Shown: positions 113 to 9,413 of the stretch, in pieces
Layout: each line of letters opens with the position of its first letter
Position numbering within the stretch: the first letter of the stretch is position 1
Source: Candidatus Marinacidobacterales bacterium
GTDB lineage: Bacteria; Acidobacteriota; Vicinamibacteria; Marinacidobacterales; SMYC01
NCBI GenBank assembly: GCA_965224085.1
Contig: CBDCYI010000005.1
Coordinates: 384,001 to 448,000, forward strand
DNA: 64,000 nucleotides
Direction of reading: 5' to 3'
The notes under the pieces: generated by a model
Database searches by the model: none
Seen by the model: only the letters and a program-made list of their open reading frames with translations
Told to the model about the DNA's origin: nothing
Made by a program: the position numbers and the translations under genes

Positions 113-1486
113 ATGTTTATTACCAAGAAGCACATTTCGAGGCGCGCGGCCCTTCGCGGCCTCGGCGCTACGATGACGCTGCCTTTTCTCGACGCGATGG
201 TGCCCGCGCTCGCGGCCACGCGCAATAGCGCGGCCAATCCGCGCACGCGCTTCGTAGCACTCGAGATGGTGCACGGCTCTGCAGGCAGCACGGGGGATGG
301 GACGCGCAAGCACTACTGGTCGCCCGCCACAGTGGGCCGCCATTTCGAGACGACGCCCATCTTGCGCGCGCTCGCACCGCATCAGGACCACATTACGATC
401 GTGAGCCACACGGATATCGCGCCGGCCACTGCCCAGATCGAGGCCGAGGCCGGCGCCGACCATACACGCTCGTCCGCCGCGTGGCTGACCTGCGCCCACG
501 CCAAGATGACCGAAGGCGCCGACATCCACAACGGCATCTCGATGGACCAGCTCTATGCGCAGCAATTCGGCCAGGACACGCCGCTGCCGTCGATCCAGGT
601 CTGCGTCGAGGACGTCGGCTCGCTCACCGGCGCTTGCGGCTACGGCTATAGCTGCGTTTACGCGAACACGGTCTCTTGGGCGTCGCCGACGACGCCGCTC
701 CCGATGGAGCGCGATCCGCGCGTCGTCTTCGAGCGGCTTTTCGGCGACGGCGCTACGCCGGAAGAGCGGGTCAAGCGGCGCCAGACCAAAGCCAGCATCC
801 TCGATGGAATTCTCGACAAAGTGAACAAGCTCGAACGCGGCCTCGACGCCGCCGACCGTGCTCGGCTCGAGGACTACCTCGAAGACGTGCGCGAGATCGA
901 GCGCCGCATCGAGAGGGCCGAGACGCACAATGCCGTCAAGTCAACGACGGCGCTAGGGGCGAGCCCCATCGGCGTGCCGGATACGTGGGCGGAGCACGTC
1001 AAGCTGATGTTCGACCTCCAAATCCTTGCATTCCGAACCGACGCGACGCGGGTCTCCGCATTCAAGATGAGCCGCGACGTGAGCTCGCGTGTTTTCGCCG
1101 GAAGCGACGTGAAGACGCCGTTTCATTCTCTCTCGCACCACATGGACAAGCCGGACAAGCTCGCTGAATTCGCGCGGCTCAATGAGTTCCATGTGAATCA
1201 CGTCGCTGATTTCATCGACAAGATGAAGAACACACCGGACGGCGACGGCAGCTTGCTCGACCATTCGATGGTGCTCTATGGAAGCCCGATGGGCGATGGC
1301 AGCGTGCACAACCATTTGCGCGTCCCGCTCTTCATCGCGGGCCATGCCAATGACACGCTCGAGGGAAATCTTCACGTTCTCTGCGAGGACGGCACTCCCA
1401 TGGCGAATGTGCTCCTAACGCTTCTTCACAAGCTCGGAGTCGAGGTCGATCGCTTCGGCGACAGCAACGGCACGGTGGCGATTTGA
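113..1486 (+). CDS. DUF1552 domain protein with Tat-like signal
   Basis: MFITKKHISRRAALRGLGATMTLPFLDAMVPA leader; CGYGYSCVYANTVSW, PMERDPRVVFERLFG and GSLLDHSMVLYGS motifs. Confidence 0.85.
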   Translation: MFITKKHISRRAALRGLGATMTLPFLDAMVPALAATRNSAANPRTRFVALEMVHGSAGSTGDGTRKHYWSPATVGRHFETTPILRALAPHQDHITIVSHTDIAPATAQIEAEAGADHTRSSAAWLTCAHAKMTEGADIHNGISMDQLYAQQFGQDTPLPSIQVCVEDVGSLTGACGYGYSCVYANTVSWASPTTPLPMERDPRVVFERLFGDGATPEERVKRRQTKASILDGILDKVNKLERGLDAADRARLEDYLEDVREIERRIERAETHNAVKSTTALGASPIGVPDTWAEHVKLMFDLQILAFRTDATRVSAFKMSRDVSSRVFAGSDVKTPFHSLSHHMDKPDKLAEFARLNEFHVNHVADFIDKMKNTPDGDGSLLDHSMVLYGSPMGDGSVHNHLRVPLFIAGHANDTLEGNLHVLCEDGTPMANVLLTLLHKLGVEVDRFGDSNGTVAI

Positions 1487-3069
1487 TCGGAAAGGGACGA
1501 AAAATGCTGGGCGGGGAGCTCCTGAGCGTATCGATTCTGATGGCGATGGCGATGCTGGCATCCGCCGACGATACGGATACGTCCACGCGGCTCGCGGAGG
1601 AAGCCAAGAGCGGCCGTGTCGTGAACGTACATGCGCTCTTGCACGAATATGTCGACGTGAACGCCGCTCAGGGTGACGGGATGACCGCGCTCCACTGGGC
1701 CGCCTATAACGACGACGTCGAGATGGCGGAGCTTCTTCTCGGTGCGGATGCGAACTTCGAGGCACGCACGCGCGTGGGCGGCATTACGCCTCTCTTGCTC
1801 GCGAGTAAGAACGGAAGTGCTTCGATGCTCGAAGCGCTACTCGAAGCGGGCGCTAACGCCAACCACGCGAGCGAGACCGGCGCGTCGGCGCTGATGAGTG
1901 CCGCATTGACGGGGAACGTCGGGGCGGTCCAGGTGCTGCTCGATCACGAAGCGGACGTCAATGCCCGTGAGCGCGCCCATGGACAGACGCCGTTGATGTT
2001 TGCCGCGTGGGAGAACCGGCCGAAAATCATCCGAAGGCTCATCGCTCATGGCGCGCATCCAGAGCTCGCCTCGACGGTGCTGCCGCTCAACGAGCAGCAT
2101 TATGACGATAACGGCATGCCCCGCAAGCGCCGCGGCAGTCAGCAATCTGGCGGCAATTCTGCCATGGGCGGAATGACAGCGCTCTTGTTCGCCGCGCGCG
2201 ACGGCCACATGGAAGCCGTCGCGGCCCTTCTCGACGCCGGCGCCGACATCAACCGCGTGAGCGGCGGCGACGCGTCGAGTCCCATCGTTATCGCCATTGC
2301 GAATGGACACTACACGCTCGGGCAATATTTTCTCGACCGCGGCGCCGACCCGAACGTGGCGAATTTGGACGGGGTCGCGCCGCTCTACGCCACCGTCAAC
2401 ATGCGTTACGCCCCGGTCTCCTGGGCGCCCAATCCGCGGATCGACCAAGAGGTCGTCGATTCTCTCGAGTTGATGCAAGCGCTCCTCGAGGCGGGGGCGG
2501 ACCCGAACGCCCAGATCGCGCGCAAGCTCTGGTTCAGCCCAACCTCGCACGATCGCGGATGGATCGACCAAGCGGGCGCGACGCCGTTTTGGCGCGCGGC
2601 GATGTCGACCGACGTCGAAGCGATGAAAGTGCTCGTGGCCGCGGGCGCCGATCCGAGCTTGAAAACGGACGGAGGCGCGACGGCGCTCATGGTCGCGTCC
2701 GGCCTAGGCTGGATCGGCAATTTCAGCCAGAACCCGCCCGATTCGTGGGTGGAGGCTGTCGAATATTGTCTGAATCTCGAAAACGACATCAACGCCGTCG
2801 ACAAAGACGGCTTCACGGCCCTACACGGCGCCGCATCTCGCGGTGATAACGAGACCGTCCAGCTCCTCGTCGACCGGGGCGCACGGGTCGATATCGTCAA
2901 CGAGGACGGCAACTCGCCGGCGGATATGGCCTTCGGCCCGTCGCGCTTTTTCATCCCCAAGCCGGAGACGGTGGACCTGCTCATAGCACTCGGCGCGCCG
3001 TTTTTGGACAATTGCCGCTCGGACCAGTGCGTCGACGGGAAGTTCCTCGGGGGCGCGGTCGCCAAATAG
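1483..3069 (+). CDS. Secreted ankyrin-repeat protein
   Basis: Repeated G.TALH/TPL..AA..G motifs (DGMTALHWAA, GITPLLLAS, GQTPLMFAA, GFTALHGAA); hydrophobic N-terminus; start may be ATG 1504. Confidence 0.9.
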   Translation: MIGKGRKMLGGELLSVSILMAMAMLASADDTDTSTRLAEEAKSGRVVNVHALLHEYVDVNAAQGDGMTALHWAAYNDDVEMAELLLGADANFEARTRVGGITPLLLASKNGSASMLEALLEAGANANHASETGASALMSAALTGNVGAVQVLLDHEADVNARERAHGQTPLMFAAWENRPKIIRRLIAHGAHPELASTVLPLNEQHYDDNGMPRKRRGSQQSGGNSAMGGMTALLFAARDGHMEAVAALLDAGADINRVSGGDASSPIVIAIANGHYTLGQYFLDRGADPNVANLDGVAPLYATVNMRYAPVSWAPNPRIDQEVVDSLELMQALLEAGADPNAQIARKLWFSPTSHDRGWIDQAGATPFWRAAMSTDVEAMKVLVAAGADPSLKTDGGATALMVASGLGWIGNFSQNPPDSWVEAVEYCLNLENDINAVDKDGFTALHGAASRGDNETVQLLVDRGARVDIVNEDGNSPADMAFGPSRFFIPKPETVDLLIALGAPFLDNCRSDQCVDGKFLGGAVAK

Positions 3070-3265
3070 TCTCGAATCCCGCCCCAAACCCTTCCGAAGG
3101 CAATCGGAACCCTTTCCTAACCGCGGTCTAGCGTTAAGCTCGAGACTCCGTCCAGCGCACGACCGAAGTCACGCGCGTCTTGGCGCGCCTCGTTTGCTCA
3201 AGGGGGCTAATTTATCTATCCTTGCGACCCACATGATGAGCACGGCCAAGAAAAGGAGTAGGTCC

Positions 3266-4171
3266 ATGAAGCATTGGAGTATCGTTTTTCTCCTGGCGTC
3301 GTTGTGCTGTCAGCCTGCTGAAGAATCGGCGCCGACCCCGGCCGTCGAATTGGTGGGCTTTGCCAACCCGGACCTTCTCATCGAGACCGATTGGCTAGCA
3401 GAGCACACGGGTGATACGAGAGTCCGAATCGTGGACGCGCGGGCGGCCGAAGCCTACGAAGCGGGCCATATCCCGGGCGCCATCCACATCGCACGCGAAG
3501 ACACCTACGATCCCGACGCCGAGATCCGCGCCACCGTTGGTCCTCCCGAGCAGATCGCGTCTCTGTTCGGCGCCAAGGGCATCGACGAGTATGCACACGT
3601 CGTCGTGTACGACAAGGGCGTCGCAACCAGAGCAGCACGGATCTTCTGGACGCTCGAATATTACGGCCACCCCAACGTCTCGGTTCTGAACGGCGGCTTC
3701 GACAAGTGGCAGGCGGAAGCGCGCGACGTCACGACTGAAGTTCGAGAAGTCGCGCCCGTAACGCTCACGGTTCAGAGGAACGCGAGCGCGCTGACGACCA
3801 GGGATCGGATCCTCGGAGATCTCGACGCGACCGACGCCGTCATCTTGGACGTCCGAACGTCGGAGGAGTTCTCCGGCGAGGATGCGCGCGCCGAGAGGGG
3901 CGGCCACATTCCGGGTGCCGTTCACCTCGAGTGGACCGAGAACTACACGTCGGGCGAAGCGCCGATTCTCAAATCCGCGCTGGAGCTATCGAACATGTAC
4001 GAGCAGGCAGGCGTTACGAAGGACAAACGCGTCCATGCTTACTGACAGGGCGGAGGCCGGTCGTCGGTGACGTACCTCGTGCTTCGACTGTTGGGCTTTG
4101 AAGAGCCTTTGAACTATGACGCGTCCTGGCTGGAGTGGGGCAACGATCCGGATACACCGATAGAGAAGTAG
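3266..4171 (+). CDS. Tandem-domain rhodanese/sulfurtransferase, predicted selenoprotein (Sec at TGA 4043-4045), probable signal peptide/lipoprotein
   Basis: RBS aaggag before ATG 3266; GHIPGA twice; the frame continues past TGA as [22 protein letters not shown]...[19 protein letters not shown], which is the catalytic loop plus the rhodanese C-terminal signature. Confidence 0.88.
4046..4078 (+). promoter_or_regulatory. Putative bacterial SECIS element
   Basis: gag..gt-cgtc-GGT-gacg-t-ac-ctc hairpin; the G-starting apical loop begins 20 nt after the UGA. Confidence 0.65.
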
Positions 4172-4197
4172 GTCGCGTCAACAAGCCAAACGAGTGC

Positions 4198-4737
4198 TCA
4201 TCGCCCTAGGGCCATCCCCCCGAGCCCAAAGAAAGCGGCGAGCCAGAAAGCGACGAACAAATACGCGACGAAACCCACGAGGCAAACGACAACCGCTTTC
4301 CCCGTCGATTTGTAGTCGAGCGCTTGCCGAACGGCAACAACCGTCGCCACCAGCTGCCAGATCCATACGACGAAGCGCACCAGCCAGCCCAAGAGCGGGA
4401 CGATGCCAAGAATGTTCAAAATACCCGGTGAGGCGGCGAAGCCTATGGTTCGAAGAAGCTGCCCGAAGTCAGCTTTGGTCGATGGCTCCGGCAGGAGCTT
4501 CGTCCCGACGACGAAAATAATGCCTGCCCAAACGACCCAGCCGACGCCCGCAGCAATGAGCCCACCGACGAGACCCCTAGAGCCGCCGAAACCCGCGGAG
4601 CCAATCCCGGATGCGATGACCGACAGCGCGACGACGGCCATCGCTTGCGGTAGCGCGTTCTCATCGTGCTCAACTTCTTCATAAGTCTTGACGTTCAGCG
4701 TCGCGGCGCCGATCATCCTCTCTGTAAAGCTCGCCAT
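4198..4737 (-). CDS. Yip1-family membrane protein
   Basis: Five hydrophobic helices; YEEVEHD and LLRTIGFAASPG motifs; RBS ggag upstream. Confidence 0.8.
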   Translation of the reverse strand: MASFTERMIGAATLNVKTYEEVEHDENALPQAMAVVALSVIASGIGSAGFGGSRGLVGGLIAAGVGWVVWAGIIFVVGTKLLPEPSTKADFGQLLRTIGFAASPGILNILGIVPLLGWLVRFVVWIWQLVATVVAVRQALDYKSTGKAVVVCLVGFVAYLFVAFWLAAFFGLGGMALGR

Positions 4738-7298: not shown

Positions 7299-8159
7299 AT
7301 GGGATGCCTTAGCGAAAAAATGCTTGCCGACATGAAACTGAAGGGGTTCGCACGCTCCACGCAGGAGGAGTATCTGCTGCGAGCGCGCCATTTCGCGGCA
7401 CATTACATGCGCTCACCCGCCGAGATGGGCGAGCCGGAGACCCGCGATTATCTGATTCATCTCGTTAACGAGAAGAAGGCCTCTCCGGCCAGCCACCACA
7501 TGTACGTCGCCTCTCTCAAGTTTCTCTACGCAACCACACTCAACCGCCCGGAGGAGGTGGCGAAGATTCCTTGGCCCAAGAAACCTCGCACGTTACCCGA
7601 TATCTTGAGCGGCGAGGAGGTCGATTGTTTGCTTCACTCCGTTAACTCCGTCAAACACCGCGCGATTCTCATGAGCGCCTACGGCGCCGGGCTGCGCGTT
7701 TCCGAGGTGTGCTGTCTGAAGCACTCCGACATCGACTCCAAACGCATGCTCTTGCACATTCGTCACGCCAAGAACTCCAAGGCCCGCTATGTCACGCTCA
7801 GCGAACGTTTGTTGAGCTTCCTGCGCTACTACTGGAAAACCACTCGCCCTCGCGGAGAGTACTTGTTTCCCGGCCGTAATCCTGGTGCCCACATCTCAGA
7901 CGATGGCGTTCGCTGGGCTCTTCGTAAGGCCGTGGCTGAGGCGGGGCTCACCAAACGTATCACTCCTCATTCGCTGCGCCACGGTTTTGCCACACATATG
8001 CTCGAACTGGGTGAAGACATTCGTACCGTGCAGCAACTGCTCGGTCATGCCTCCATCCAGACCACGGCCCGTTACACAAAGGTAACAGCAAAGCACTTGG
8101 GGCGCATCAAGAGCCCTCTCGATTTGCTGGGAACGAAGAAGGGCAAAAAGCTCGGCTAG
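7299..8159 (+). CDS. Tyrosine recombinase/integrase (N-terminal SAM-like domain)
   Basis: YGAGLRVSE (R), HSLRHGFATH (H-x-x-R), LLGHASIQTTARY (H/Y); RBS ggagga. Confidence 0.95.
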   Translation: MGCLSEKMLADMKLKGFARSTQEEYLLRARHFAAHYMRSPAEMGEPETRDYLIHLVNEKKASPASHHMYVASLKFLYATTLNRPEEVAKIPWPKKPRTLPDILSGEEVDCLLHSVNSVKHRAILMSAYGAGLRVSEVCCLKHSDIDSKRMLLHIRHAKNSKARYVTLSERLLSFLRYYWKTTRPRGEYLFPGRNPGAHISDDGVRWALRKAVAEAGLTKRITPHSLRHGFATHMLELGEDIRTVQQLLGHASIQTTARYTKVTAKHLGRIKSPLDLLGTKKGKKLG

Positions 8160-8165
8160 CTCATC

Positions 8166-9413
8166 ATGCAGCCCCATGGGCTGTGTCCTTCCCGCGTCGA
8201 GTCACCACCACGGCCACTGCTCGAGATCGCGGAAATCTTCCGCGAACATGGTCCACGCTTTCGCCAAACCCATGCGCTGACAGCCGAGCAGCGCAAGGTG
8301 ATGTGGGCTATAGAGAACTGTCGCACGGCGGTGCTAGGTGGCCATCTCGACGTGTGTAACGCTTGCGGATACGCGGCGCCTTCGTTTAACTCGTGCCGCA
8401 ATCGGCACTGTCCCAAGTGTCAGAGCCTAGCCCAGGCGAAGTGGATGGAGCAGCGAGCTCAGAGGATTCTTCCGACTCACTATTTCCACGTCGTTTTCAC
8501 CCTCCCGCAGCAACTCAAGCCTCTCGCCCGAGACAATCCCAAGTTCATGTTCAACCTCCTGTTTCGCGCCGCCTCGCGAACTCTATTGGAGTTCGGCCAA
8601 AGCCGGCTCGAAGCTCAACTTGCCTTCACCGCCGTACTGCACACCTGGACCCGGAAGCTCCTGTTCCATCCACACCTGCATTGCATCGTCTCCGGGGGCG
8701 GGCTCAACCACCCTCAGCAGCTGTGGAACGCCGCAAACCCTCGCTTTCTGTTTCCCGTCAAGGCCATGTCGCGGCTTTTTCGCAGCAAGTTTCTCGATGC
8801 CCTTAGGCTCGCTTACGACCAAGATGAGCTTGAGTTGAGCGCAAACGCTTCCCACCTCAGAAACCCACCTCGCTTCCGGGAGCTGAAAGACAAGCTCTAC
8901 CGCATCGATTGGGTCGTTTACAGCAAACGACCCTTCGGTGGCCCAGAGCAGGTTTTCAACTACCTCGGCCGATATACCCACCGGGTCGGCATCTCCAACC
9001 GCCGACTCATTCGCATCGACCACTACGGCGTCTGCTTCGCCACCAAGAATGGTAATACCGTTACCGTCCCCCCAGAGGAATTTATCCGCCGTTTCCTCCT
9101 GCACGTACTGCCGAAAGGTTTCGTCAAGATTCGCCATTTCGGCTTAATGGCCTCCTCCAATGCGACCACCAAGCTCGTAGTCGCGCGCCAGTTGCTCGAT
9201 GAGAAAACAAAACCCACGACCGACGCCGACGACGTGCAAGTCAGCTCGCGTGCCACCGAGGACAAGGACTGGCGCGAGCGGCTCAAGGAGCTCACCGGCA
9301 TCGACCTCACCATCTGTCCCCGCTGCAAGAAAGGTCGCATGCTCCGATGCCCTCTCTCCACGAAGCTTCGACGGATCAACCTCCAGATCCGCTCCCCTCC
9401 AGATGAGTCATGA
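8166..9413 (+). CDS. IS91-family (Y2, HUH) transposase with Zn-binding domain
   Basis: CRTAVLGGH, NSCRNRHCPKC, FHVVFTLP, LHTW...HPHLHCIV (HUH), YLGRYTHR (Y2), EFIRRFLLHVLPKGF. Confidence 0.95.
   Translation: MQPHGLCPSRVESPPRPLLEIAEIFREHGPRFRQTHALTAEQRKVMWAIENCRTAVLGGHLDVCNACGYAAPSFNSCRNRHCPKCQSLAQAKWMEQRAQRILPTHYFHVVFTLPQQLKPLARDNPKFMFNLLFRAASRTLLEFGQSRLEAQLAFTAVLHTWTRKLLFHPHLHCIVSGGGLNHPQQLWNAANPRFLFPVKAMSRLFRSKFLDALRLAYDQDELELSANASHLRNPPRFRELKDKLYRIDWVVYSKRPFGGPEQVFNYLGRYTHRVGISNRRLIRIDHYGVCFATKNGNTVTVPPEEFIRRFLLHVLPKGFVKIRHFGLMASSNATTKLVVARQLLDEKTKPTTDADDVQVSSRATEDKDWRERLKELTGIDLTICPRCKKGRMLRCPLSTKLRRINLQIRSPPDES

Follow-up and report, generated by a model that had tools for sequence, protein, structure and literature searches.

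Rhodaneses that carry selenocysteine (Sec) have been catalogued since 2005, when the Sargasso Sea selenoproteome listed a 'Rhodanese-related sulfurtransferase' (COG2897) as a new selenoprotein family, with three sequences and a drawn selenocysteine insertion sequence (SECIS) element (PMC1088965). The GOS paper placed Sec sulfurtransferases under cd01449, COG0607, and COG2897 (PMC2398784), a 2022 review named COG2897 (SseA) among the predicted selenoprotein families (PMC9312934), and a 2026 review recognized five rhodanese forms, of which form 4 is a 'rhodanese-related sulfurtransferase' with the motif UxxG (PMC13188914). In this study, we analyzed a gene at 3266-4171 on the forward strand of a 64,000-nt stretch of DNA from a Candidatus Marinacidobacterales bacterium (contig CBDCYI010000005.1 of assembly GCA_965224085.1, positions 384,001 to 448,000), hereafter referred to as the window. 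An earlier reading of the letters alone (the sequence-only reading) had proposed that the gene encodes an exported tandem rhodanese with UGA at its catalytic Cys and had noted that Sec-containing rhodaneses were predicted before, which agrees with the cataloguing of COG2897 (PMC1088965, PMC9312934, PMC13188914).

The analysis indicated that 3266-4171 is very probably an intact, genuine selenoprotein gene in which UGA is read as Sec. This reading is based on four independent lines of evidence: the Sec machinery of the genome, Sec/Cys pairs among relatives, a conserved hairpin downstream of the UGA codon, and a tail beyond it that evolves like coding sequence. Because the U-Q-G-G of the window protein fits the UxxG motif of the catalogued COG2897 form, the kind of protein has been known since 2005.

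Reading frame, active site, and Sec machinery

The gene occupies a single 301-codon frame (3266-4171, +) with one in-frame TGA at 4043-4045 (codon 260). Its ATG start (3266-3268, +) lies 7 nt downstream of a Shine-Dalgarno-like AAGGAG (3253-3258, +), both read from the sequence, and the N-terminal MKHWS is kept in orthologues, among which that of the related genome G003 begins with GTG. The 259 open codons upstream of the TGA end in ...K-R-V-H-A-Y, and the open reading frame (ORF) lister terminates the frame there, at 4045. As the sequence-only reading had described, the frame runs on past HAY-TGA for 41 further codons, to a TAG at 4169-4171 (+). The TAG is predicted to be the true stop, as it is common to three congeners and ungapped identity to them drops from 0.94-0.95 within the tail to 0.22-0.32 over the 120 nt beyond. 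Between the tail and its counterparts in the three congeners, 4-6 synonymous codon differences and one non-synonymous difference were counted, mostly at third positions. These comparisons indicate that the 41-codon tail evolves like coding sequence. Based on the translation and on the Pfam and PDB matches described below, 3266-4171 was annotated as a complete predicted Sec-rhodanese coding sequence with UGA as Sec at codon 260 and TAG as its stop.

The sequencing data contain TGA at this codon and not TGC or TGT. Positions 4043-4045 are covered, at word depths of 19-52, by assembled contigs from four runs belonging to three studies (the best-matching run is possibly the window's own source sample, and contigs drop rare variants), and only TGA was found there. 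None of the runs listed as containing the gene is an RNA run. The TGA is not an assembly error, and minor alleles may exist alongside it. A separate contig of run X8 (594 nt, depth 11) connects position 3579 directly to 4154, so that 574 nt including the active site are absent, and carries 10 other letters beyond the joint; a related strain with a deletion, or an artefact of assembly, may account for it.

According to Pfam analysis, the protein matches PF00581 (Rhodanese) in two stretches (1.2e-40; 138.5 bits against a cut-off of 22.2). The best stretch corresponds to a predicted N-terminal, non-catalytic rhodanese domain (residues 41-151; 3386-3718, +), in which Asp116 stands at the counterpart of the catalytic Cys, as in RhdA according to the alignment to 1e0c. 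The second stretch, together with alignments to 1e0c and 1uar through residue 300, delimits a predicted C-terminal catalytic domain with approximate borders at residues ~174-300 (3785-4165, +). Two-domain PDB chains were aligned by HMMER over residues 32-300, and the TGA column coincides with the catalytic Cys of both 1e0c (thCQTHHRS) and 1uar (vyCRIAERS), the loop being ungapped; the sequence-only reading had placed the TGA at exactly this residue of a two-domain rhodanese. The predicted active-site loop, U-Q-G-G-G-R-S (4043-4063, +), contains U-x-x-G and aligns without gaps to C-Q-T-H-H-R-S of RhdA. Tandem domains and a six-residue catalytic loop in the C-terminal domain only were found, in agreement with the definition of a two-domain rhodanese except for Sec in place of Cys, and the gene product is in all likelihood a two-domain (RhdA/TST-type) rhodanese with Sec at the catalytic Cys position. 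The same genome also encodes a Cys-type two-domain rhodanese paralogue (G000:C11:338681-339433) with 31% identity and a 281-residue frame.

The Sec machinery that the sequence-only reading had suggested looking for was found in full. The window's genome (G000; 12 contigs, 95% complete) has selA, selB, and selD (550, 365, and 280 bits, respectively), each above its curated cut-off, as well as a tRNA-Sec (74 bits, above cut-off) to which ARAGORN assigned the anticodon tca. The encoded SelB bears SelB-wing_2 and SelB-wing_3 winged-helix domains. TGA is the ordinary stop of 3/7 neighbouring genes, and translation table 11 gives uninterrupted frames for selA, selB, and selD; therefore, the code is standard, with no reassignment of TGA. 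selA was above its cut-off in 10/10 genomes tested, including each TGA carrier examined. The selD gene is fused to an N-terminal pyridine-nucleotide-disulphide oxidoreductase domain in a 742-residue frame (L010:1399-3627 on the minus strand, equal to G000:C5 ~1545060-1547288). One contig of another genome carries two selA matches of equal score (516.6 bits; G109:C6:10376-11734 and 191379-192737), which may represent a duplication or an assembly repeat.

Sec/Cys pairs and the downstream hairpin

Homologues with aligned TGA/Cys pairs and a conserved hairpin, which the sequence-only reading had named as a check, were recovered. Among 41 related genomes, an orthologous TGA was present at the same codon in G002 (94% identity), G004 (91%), and G003 (89%). 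In the G003 orthologue (L027/L045, G003:C1:2371335-2372242), an AA pair located 24 nt before the TGA is reduced to a single A, causing a frameshift, and its tail and hairpin show no other damage; either this gene became a pseudogene recently, or the single-contig assembly contains a homopolymer error. G012, of another genus of the family, contains a relic of the last ~55 codons (L044, G012:C3 ~1975300-1975470) in which the tail is frameshifted, the TGA is kept, and the hairpin is identical. When 401 genomes of the phylum were sampled, further TGA codons were found in G439 (56% identity) and in G109 and G170 (38%, from a different acidobacterial family), and scans of metagenomes and genomes contributed four metagenome contigs as well as metagenome-assembled genomes of Chloroflexi (two), Dehalococcoidales (one), and Planctomycetota (one). 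Two other genomes considered as carriers of Sec-forms, G197 and G157, were rejected, since both have Cys at the catalytic codon, with the TGA at another place in the match. The homologue in G011 (56% identical) ends with its contig at residue 248, short of the catalytic codon.

A first codon count, in which the match covered residue 260 in 232/234 loci, gave TGC in 188, TGT in 26, and TGA in 18, and a second (80/80 loci) gave TGC in 60, TGT in 16, and TGA in 4; both counts include duplicates, with some loci fetched twice. Once duplicates are discounted, the catalytic column reads TGA in 16 distinct loci, compared with 290 TGC/TGT rows (214 + 76, repeats included). Alignment to the catalytic Cys, the recurrence of TGA in these 16 loci, and the contigs of the four runs all support 4043-4045 (+) as a Sec codon for the predicted catalytic residue.

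A predicted SECIS hairpin, GGUCGUC / GGU / GACG-U-ACC, was located at 4058-4077 (+) by minimum free energy (MFE) folds, RNAalifold, and frozen synonymous sites. The sequence-only reading had described a cgtc-GGT-gacg hairpin in the bacterial SECIS layout, with its loop starting 20 nt past the TGA, and this description was accurate: CGUC-GGU-GACG lies at 4062-4072 inside GGUCGUC/GACG-U-ACC (4059-4076), and the GGU loop (4066-4068) begins 20 nt past the UGA. In the window, the hairpin has seven pairs (4 + 3) and a bulged U. The bacterial SECIS model, as quoted in the 2026 review, has a loop of 3-9 nt, an upper stem of 4-16 bp, G in loop position 1 or 2, a distance of 16-37 nt from the UGA, and an MFE of -7.5 kcal/mol or lower (PMC13188914). 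With its 3-nt GGU loop, 7 paired positions, G in loop positions 1-2, and 20-nt spacing, the window element agrees with the four published constraints; its MFE is -17.8 kcal/mol over 52 nt and -7.1 kcal/mol for the 22-nt core alone.

Codon use was compared among 12 Sec-forms whose proteins are 39-93% identical to that of the window, three of them being congeners at 89-93%; the G012 relic and three loci of two other Sec clades were left out. The hairpin codons are near-invariant (AGG 11/12, TCG 10/11, TCG 12/12, GTG 12/12, ACG 10/10, and TAC 12/12), and the one exception to AGG is the window itself, with CGG. By contrast, fully conserved residues on both flanks are each encoded by several codons, and the synonymous entropy is 1.86 bits for Gly+3, 1.46 for Leu+11, 1.87 for Arg+14, 2.19 for Leu+16, 1.42 for Ser+27, and 1.69 for Val-4. 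RNAalifold analysis of 13 sequences retained an 8-pair stem with the bulged U and the GGU loop, together with one compensatory G-C to A-U change (L100: TCA with ATG) and a U-A to U-G change in one case. Single breaks occurred twice, once as the window's own basal C.U. The longer stem that the sequence-only reading had drawn below the hairpin stands only in part, as a lower extension is present in the window's genus but was dropped clade-wide by RNAalifold, which kept the 8-pair upper hairpin alone. Overall, these results indicate that the hairpin is conserved as RNA and conforms to the published model of bacterial SECIS elements.

A strict rule (at least four contiguous pairs and a 3-7-nt loop starting with GG, 14-24 nt past the codon) captured 13/15 Sec loci and 6/214 Cys loci; the Fisher P-value for this difference overstates it, because the rule was written after the hairpin had been seen and the loci are kin. 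In two Cys loci nested within the Sec clade (L264 and L265), the hairpin codons have drifted (CGA TCG GCG GTC GGG TAT), and they have likewise drifted in two distant Cys loci (L189 and L054). Other TGA carriers have hairpins of their own: the clade of L082 and L087 (G109 and G170) has GCG/GGUCU/CGC on a GCGC stem, with the loop at +18, and the clade of L194 has an 8-pair stem with a GGC loop at +17. The sequences indicate that these are two further Sec clades of two-domain rhodaneses, unrelated to the window clade.

A quick maximum-likelihood tree was built from 181 non-identical proteins, each at least 36% identical to the query and covering residues 60-290 in one match; L027, L044, and L105 (split or partial matches) were left out, and the midpoint root serves for drawing only, with no direction of change claimed. 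The tree requires a minimum of four changes of the Sec label within the two-domain rhodanese family. The window clade (SH-aLRT 96) comprises nine Sec and two Cys rows from Acidobacteriota, Chloroflexota, Planctomycetota, and metagenome contigs.

Export, proposed mechanism, and alternative readings

The short N-terminus has a positive n-region and is hydrophobic. A predicted signal peptide of 15 residues with a lipobox-like end covers 3266-3310 (+), and a Pro/Ala/Glu-rich linker of another 15 residues follows at 3311-3355 (+); the corresponding segment of relatives is variable in length and rich in P, A, and T. In a 17-sequence alignment, the Cys15 column is near-invariant (at least 90%) and is shared with the lipobox Cys of the family, whose ends include LSLSC, LSFAC, LLGC, FGAC, LGGC, VSGC, and LAGC followed by a Pro/Ala/Thr-rich stretch. 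The strict lipobox pattern, [LVI][ASTVI][GAS]C after a short hydrophobic signal (PROSITE PS51257/DOLOP), occurs in 29/39 proteins that end before the catalytic position and in 43/82 others (81 matches and the query), several proteins lacking it being fragments. Tat-like RR motifs were seen in 11 proteins, and a minority have no signal at all. The Sec-pathway or lipoprotein signal proposed in the sequence-only reading therefore holds insofar as it matches the family lipobox region with its near-invariant Cys15, but the window's own Cys at -1 fails the strict pattern. It is probable that the rhodanese is lipid-anchored via Cys15, and export of some kind can be assumed with greater assurance.

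It is assumed that, as the ribosome nears the UGA, the hairpin at 4058-4077 would be bound at its apical GGU loop by the C-terminal winged helix of SelB, itself loaded with GTP and Sec-tRNA(Sec), by analogy with E. coli fdhF and Moorella SelB. Sec would then be inserted at codon 260, and translation would proceed to the TAG ending at 4171. As the conserved lipobox region suggests, the 301-residue precursor may be exported, lipid-modified at Cys15, and freed of its signal peptide, leaving the enzyme tethered by the Pro/Ala-rich linker at the outer face of the cytoplasmic membrane or in the periplasm. By rhodanese chemistry, the selenolate of U260 in the loop U-Q-G-G-G-R-S would accept sulfane sulfur from thiosulfate, polysulfide, or a similar donor, and the resulting Se-S(H) enzyme intermediate would pass the sulfur to a thiophilic acceptor. 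The best NCBIfam match, NF008557 (3-mercaptopyruvate sulfurtransferase), scores 143 bits and thus stays below its equivalog cut-off (250), so that neither this match nor the gene neighbourhood points to a particular substrate.

Several observations weigh against this interpretation. G001 and G197, whose forms are all of the Cys type, likewise carry selA; thus, the co-occurrence of selA with TGA agrees with the Sec reading but does not discriminate. The eighth, basal pair of the hairpin is broken in the window (C.U), with C4058 where relatives have A, and an Rfam scan of 3900-4300 at E up to 10 returned no SECIS family, the only match being a chance one to a lncRNA. The hairpin region is no more stable than dinucleotide shuffles (z of -0.66, +0.07, and -1.08); the hairpin regions of other Sec clades gave z of +0.70 and -0.84, and folding energy is uninformative in GC-rich coding sequence. 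The hairpin also encodes R-S-S-V-T-Y, and since the nearest Cys-forms (P0008 and P0027) keep this peptide at the protein level, part of the hairpin conservation is protein constraint; the Cys-forms that keep RSSVTY (P0008, P0009, and P0026-P0029) were considered as protein sequences only, their codon use lying outside the comparison. The gene neighbourhood gives no functional hint, with nothing conserved across Sec-form loci except for downstream genes in three of them. Regarding the lipid anchor, the signal of the window reads A-S-L-C-C, and its atypical Cys at -1, which also occurs in P0088, fails the strict lipobox.

Two alternatives deny that the UGA encodes Sec. If the gene were dead or dying, the TGA would be a nonsense mutation at the catalytic codon and the tail an untranslated remnant. 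Gene callers and public records do stop the protein at ...HAY, and the 1-nt deletion in G003 and the frameshifted 3′ relic in G012 demonstrate that the gene decays in some lineages. However, a decaying gene would hardly present an identical TGA in 16 distinct loci of at least three phyla, a tail with 4-6 synonymous against one non-synonymous difference, a shared TAG with a collapse of identity beyond it, and hairpin codons frozen at synonymous sites, all next to complete Sec machinery, and we regard this explanation as highly improbable. The UGA could instead be decoded as something other than Sec, either through genome-wide reassignment of TGA or through near-cognate read-through as Cys or Trp. 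UGA read-through by Cys- or Trp-tRNA occurs under selenium scarcity, and the aligned residue of the homologues is Cys. Against such decoding stand the use of TGA as the stop of 3/7 neighbours and the open selA, selB, and selD frames in table 11, and the conserved SelB-type hairpin at the canonical distance, the tRNA-Sec, and the winged-helix SelB point to dedicated Sec insertion, which leaves decoding as another residue scarcely credible.

The remaining alternatives accept a genuine selenoenzyme and concern its location or its substrate. A soluble periplasmic or secreted protein released by signal peptidase I, or a cytoplasmic one, would be compatible with the failed strict pattern in the window and with relatives that have signal peptidase I-like or Tat-like signals or none. 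In contrast, Cys15 aligns with a near-invariant lipobox Cys, the congeners end in LSLSC, LSFAC, or LLGC, P0088 shares the Cys at -1, and the Pro/Ala-rich tether typical of the family follows the Cys, so that an enzyme without a lipid anchor is unlikely, although the idea deserves some weight. The true substrate might also be selenium rather than sulfur, as in the capture or detoxification of selenite or selenotrisulfide outside the cytoplasm, or in a perselenide carrier. In 2001, Ogasawara et al. reportedly found that a Cys-rhodanese can carry selenium; the window protein has a weak similarity to ExtH of a selenite/tellurite reduction operon (NF040901, 64.6 bits; cut-off 200), and genes for a VTT (DedA-like) membrane protein lie directly downstream of the Sec-rhodanese in two loci (L181:4722-5885 and L100:2279-3100), with no counterpart in the window. 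This suggestion is improbable given that no selenium-related neighbour occurs in the window or the congeners, that the ExtH score is far under its cut-off, and that the closest solved relatives are thiosulfate sulfurtransferases. The preferred reading is thus a Sec-containing two-domain rhodanese, probably lipid-anchored, that would act on sulfane sulfur.

A broader proposal can be put forward only tentatively, and as a whole it may well not hold. The window protein would belong to a distinct cross-phylum clade (Acidobacteriota, Chloroflexota, and Planctomycetota) of lipid-anchored, extracytoplasmic Sec-rhodaneses that selenoprotein models do not capture and that are annotated as truncated sulfurtransferases; its 20-nt SECIS hairpin would be constrained enough to dictate R-S-S-V-T-Y beside the active site, its members would handle sulfane sulfur or selenium outside the cytoplasm, and the wider family would have undergone at least four Sec/Cys exchanges. 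If this were true, such extracytoplasmic handling would be a role for which there is no characterised selenoprotein.

Around the gene, the window contains genes for DUF1552, ankyrin-repeat, and Yip1 proteins, a Ser/Thr kinase, an integrase, and an IS91-type transposase. Upstream, at 113-3069, the DUF1552 (HXXSHH) gene shares 4 nt with an overlapping gene whose 528-residue product consists almost wholly of ankyrin repeats, and the pair also stands upstream of the rhodanese gene in G002 and G004, as judged from ORF size and position only. A mobile-element pair at 7299-9413, 3 kb from the rhodanese gene, comprises a tyrosine-integrase (7299-8159) and an IS91-type Y2 transposase (8166-9413). One Sec-form locus has a second rhodanese gene directly downstream (L179:4911-5966), which has no counterpart in the window. 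A promoter and terminator scan of 2900-4500 detected nothing beyond shuffled expectation.

Annotation and comparison with known rhodaneses

The sequence-only reading had anticipated that standard annotation would call such a gene truncated, and public records do so for close homologues, which end as a 268-279-residue 'sulfurtransferase' (NIO00128.1, MFQ6058365.1, and HIC89472.1). Of the best 120 protein-database matches, 39 stop exactly at ...H-x-Y, one residue short of the catalytic position. The annotated stop at ...HAY removes the active-site loop and the last 41 residues from the window protein and from dozens of relatives. An NCBIfam scan found no model that covers the Sec-rhodanese clade of the window, and a model built for this family, with an exception for Sec, would put such records right. 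The clade also contains naturally occurring Sec and Cys versions of an enzyme that is easily assayed (thiosulfate:cyanide sulfur transfer), which makes the advantage of Sec over Cys in persulfide chemistry a directly testable question. In addition, the marine acidobacterial selenoproteome would gain an exported and probably lipid-anchored member, and the hairpin of the gene provides a clean case of an RNA element that appears to constrain the protein sequence containing it.

Among solved structures, A. vinelandii RhdA (1e0c) and the T. thermophilus rhodanese (1uar) have the same full-length two-domain fold, with E values of 8.5e-47 and 4.3e-45, respectively. Their active-site loops have the same six-residue length as that of the window protein, with Arg at +5 and Ser at +6. 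They differ in having a catalytic Cys and QTHH or RIAE in place of the window's QGGG, and no N-terminal signal or lipobox region of theirs aligns. E. coli SseA (1urh; PDB match 5e-33) is likewise a two-domain rhodanese, but this 3-mercaptopyruvate sulfurtransferase is cytoplasmic and uses Cys.

Exported rhodaneses have also been described. E. coli YnjE (3ipo, 2wlr) has extracytoplasmic rhodanese domains and matched the window protein at ~9e-17. Wolinella Sud is another exported Cys rhodanese. Geobacter ExtH is presented as a putative rhodanese-like protein encoded in an extracytoplasmic electron-transfer cluster (PMC5877670). Unlike the window protein, YnjE and ExtH have Cys instead of Sec and other domain counts.

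The single-domain Sec rhodaneses, represented by the CxU 'rhodanese-related (seleno)protein' (NF041203) and TsoB (NF045694), share with the window protein a rhodanese domain that carries Sec. They differ from it in architecture and in the Sec motif, as the window protein has no Cys two residues before U, and its scores for NF041203 (33.8 bits; cut-off 115) and NF045694 (19.5 bits; cut-off 805) are far below the cut-offs, as is that for NF040901 mentioned above.

The closest described system is the catalogued COG2897 Sec rhodanese, a predicted two-domain protein of marine origin with Sec at the catalytic Cys, UxxG at the active site, and a predicted SECIS directly downstream. The window protein is likened to form 4 by family and motif description; the exemplars MCY3690685.1, MQG53192.1, and AACY01016424 were not among the members of the 10 database clusters examined. 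In term searches of the accessible text, signal peptide and periplasm were not mentioned in the 2005 paper (PMC1088965), nor were signal peptide, periplasm, lipoprotein, or secreted in the 2026 review (PMC13188914). No bench-characterised or lipoprotein Sec-rhodanese was found in the literature searched, which lay mostly outside subscription journals. To the kind already known, the locus described here makes modest additions, namely, a conserved lipobox, a tightly constrained SECIS overlapping the active-site flank, a cross-phylum spread, and a systematic mis-annotation.

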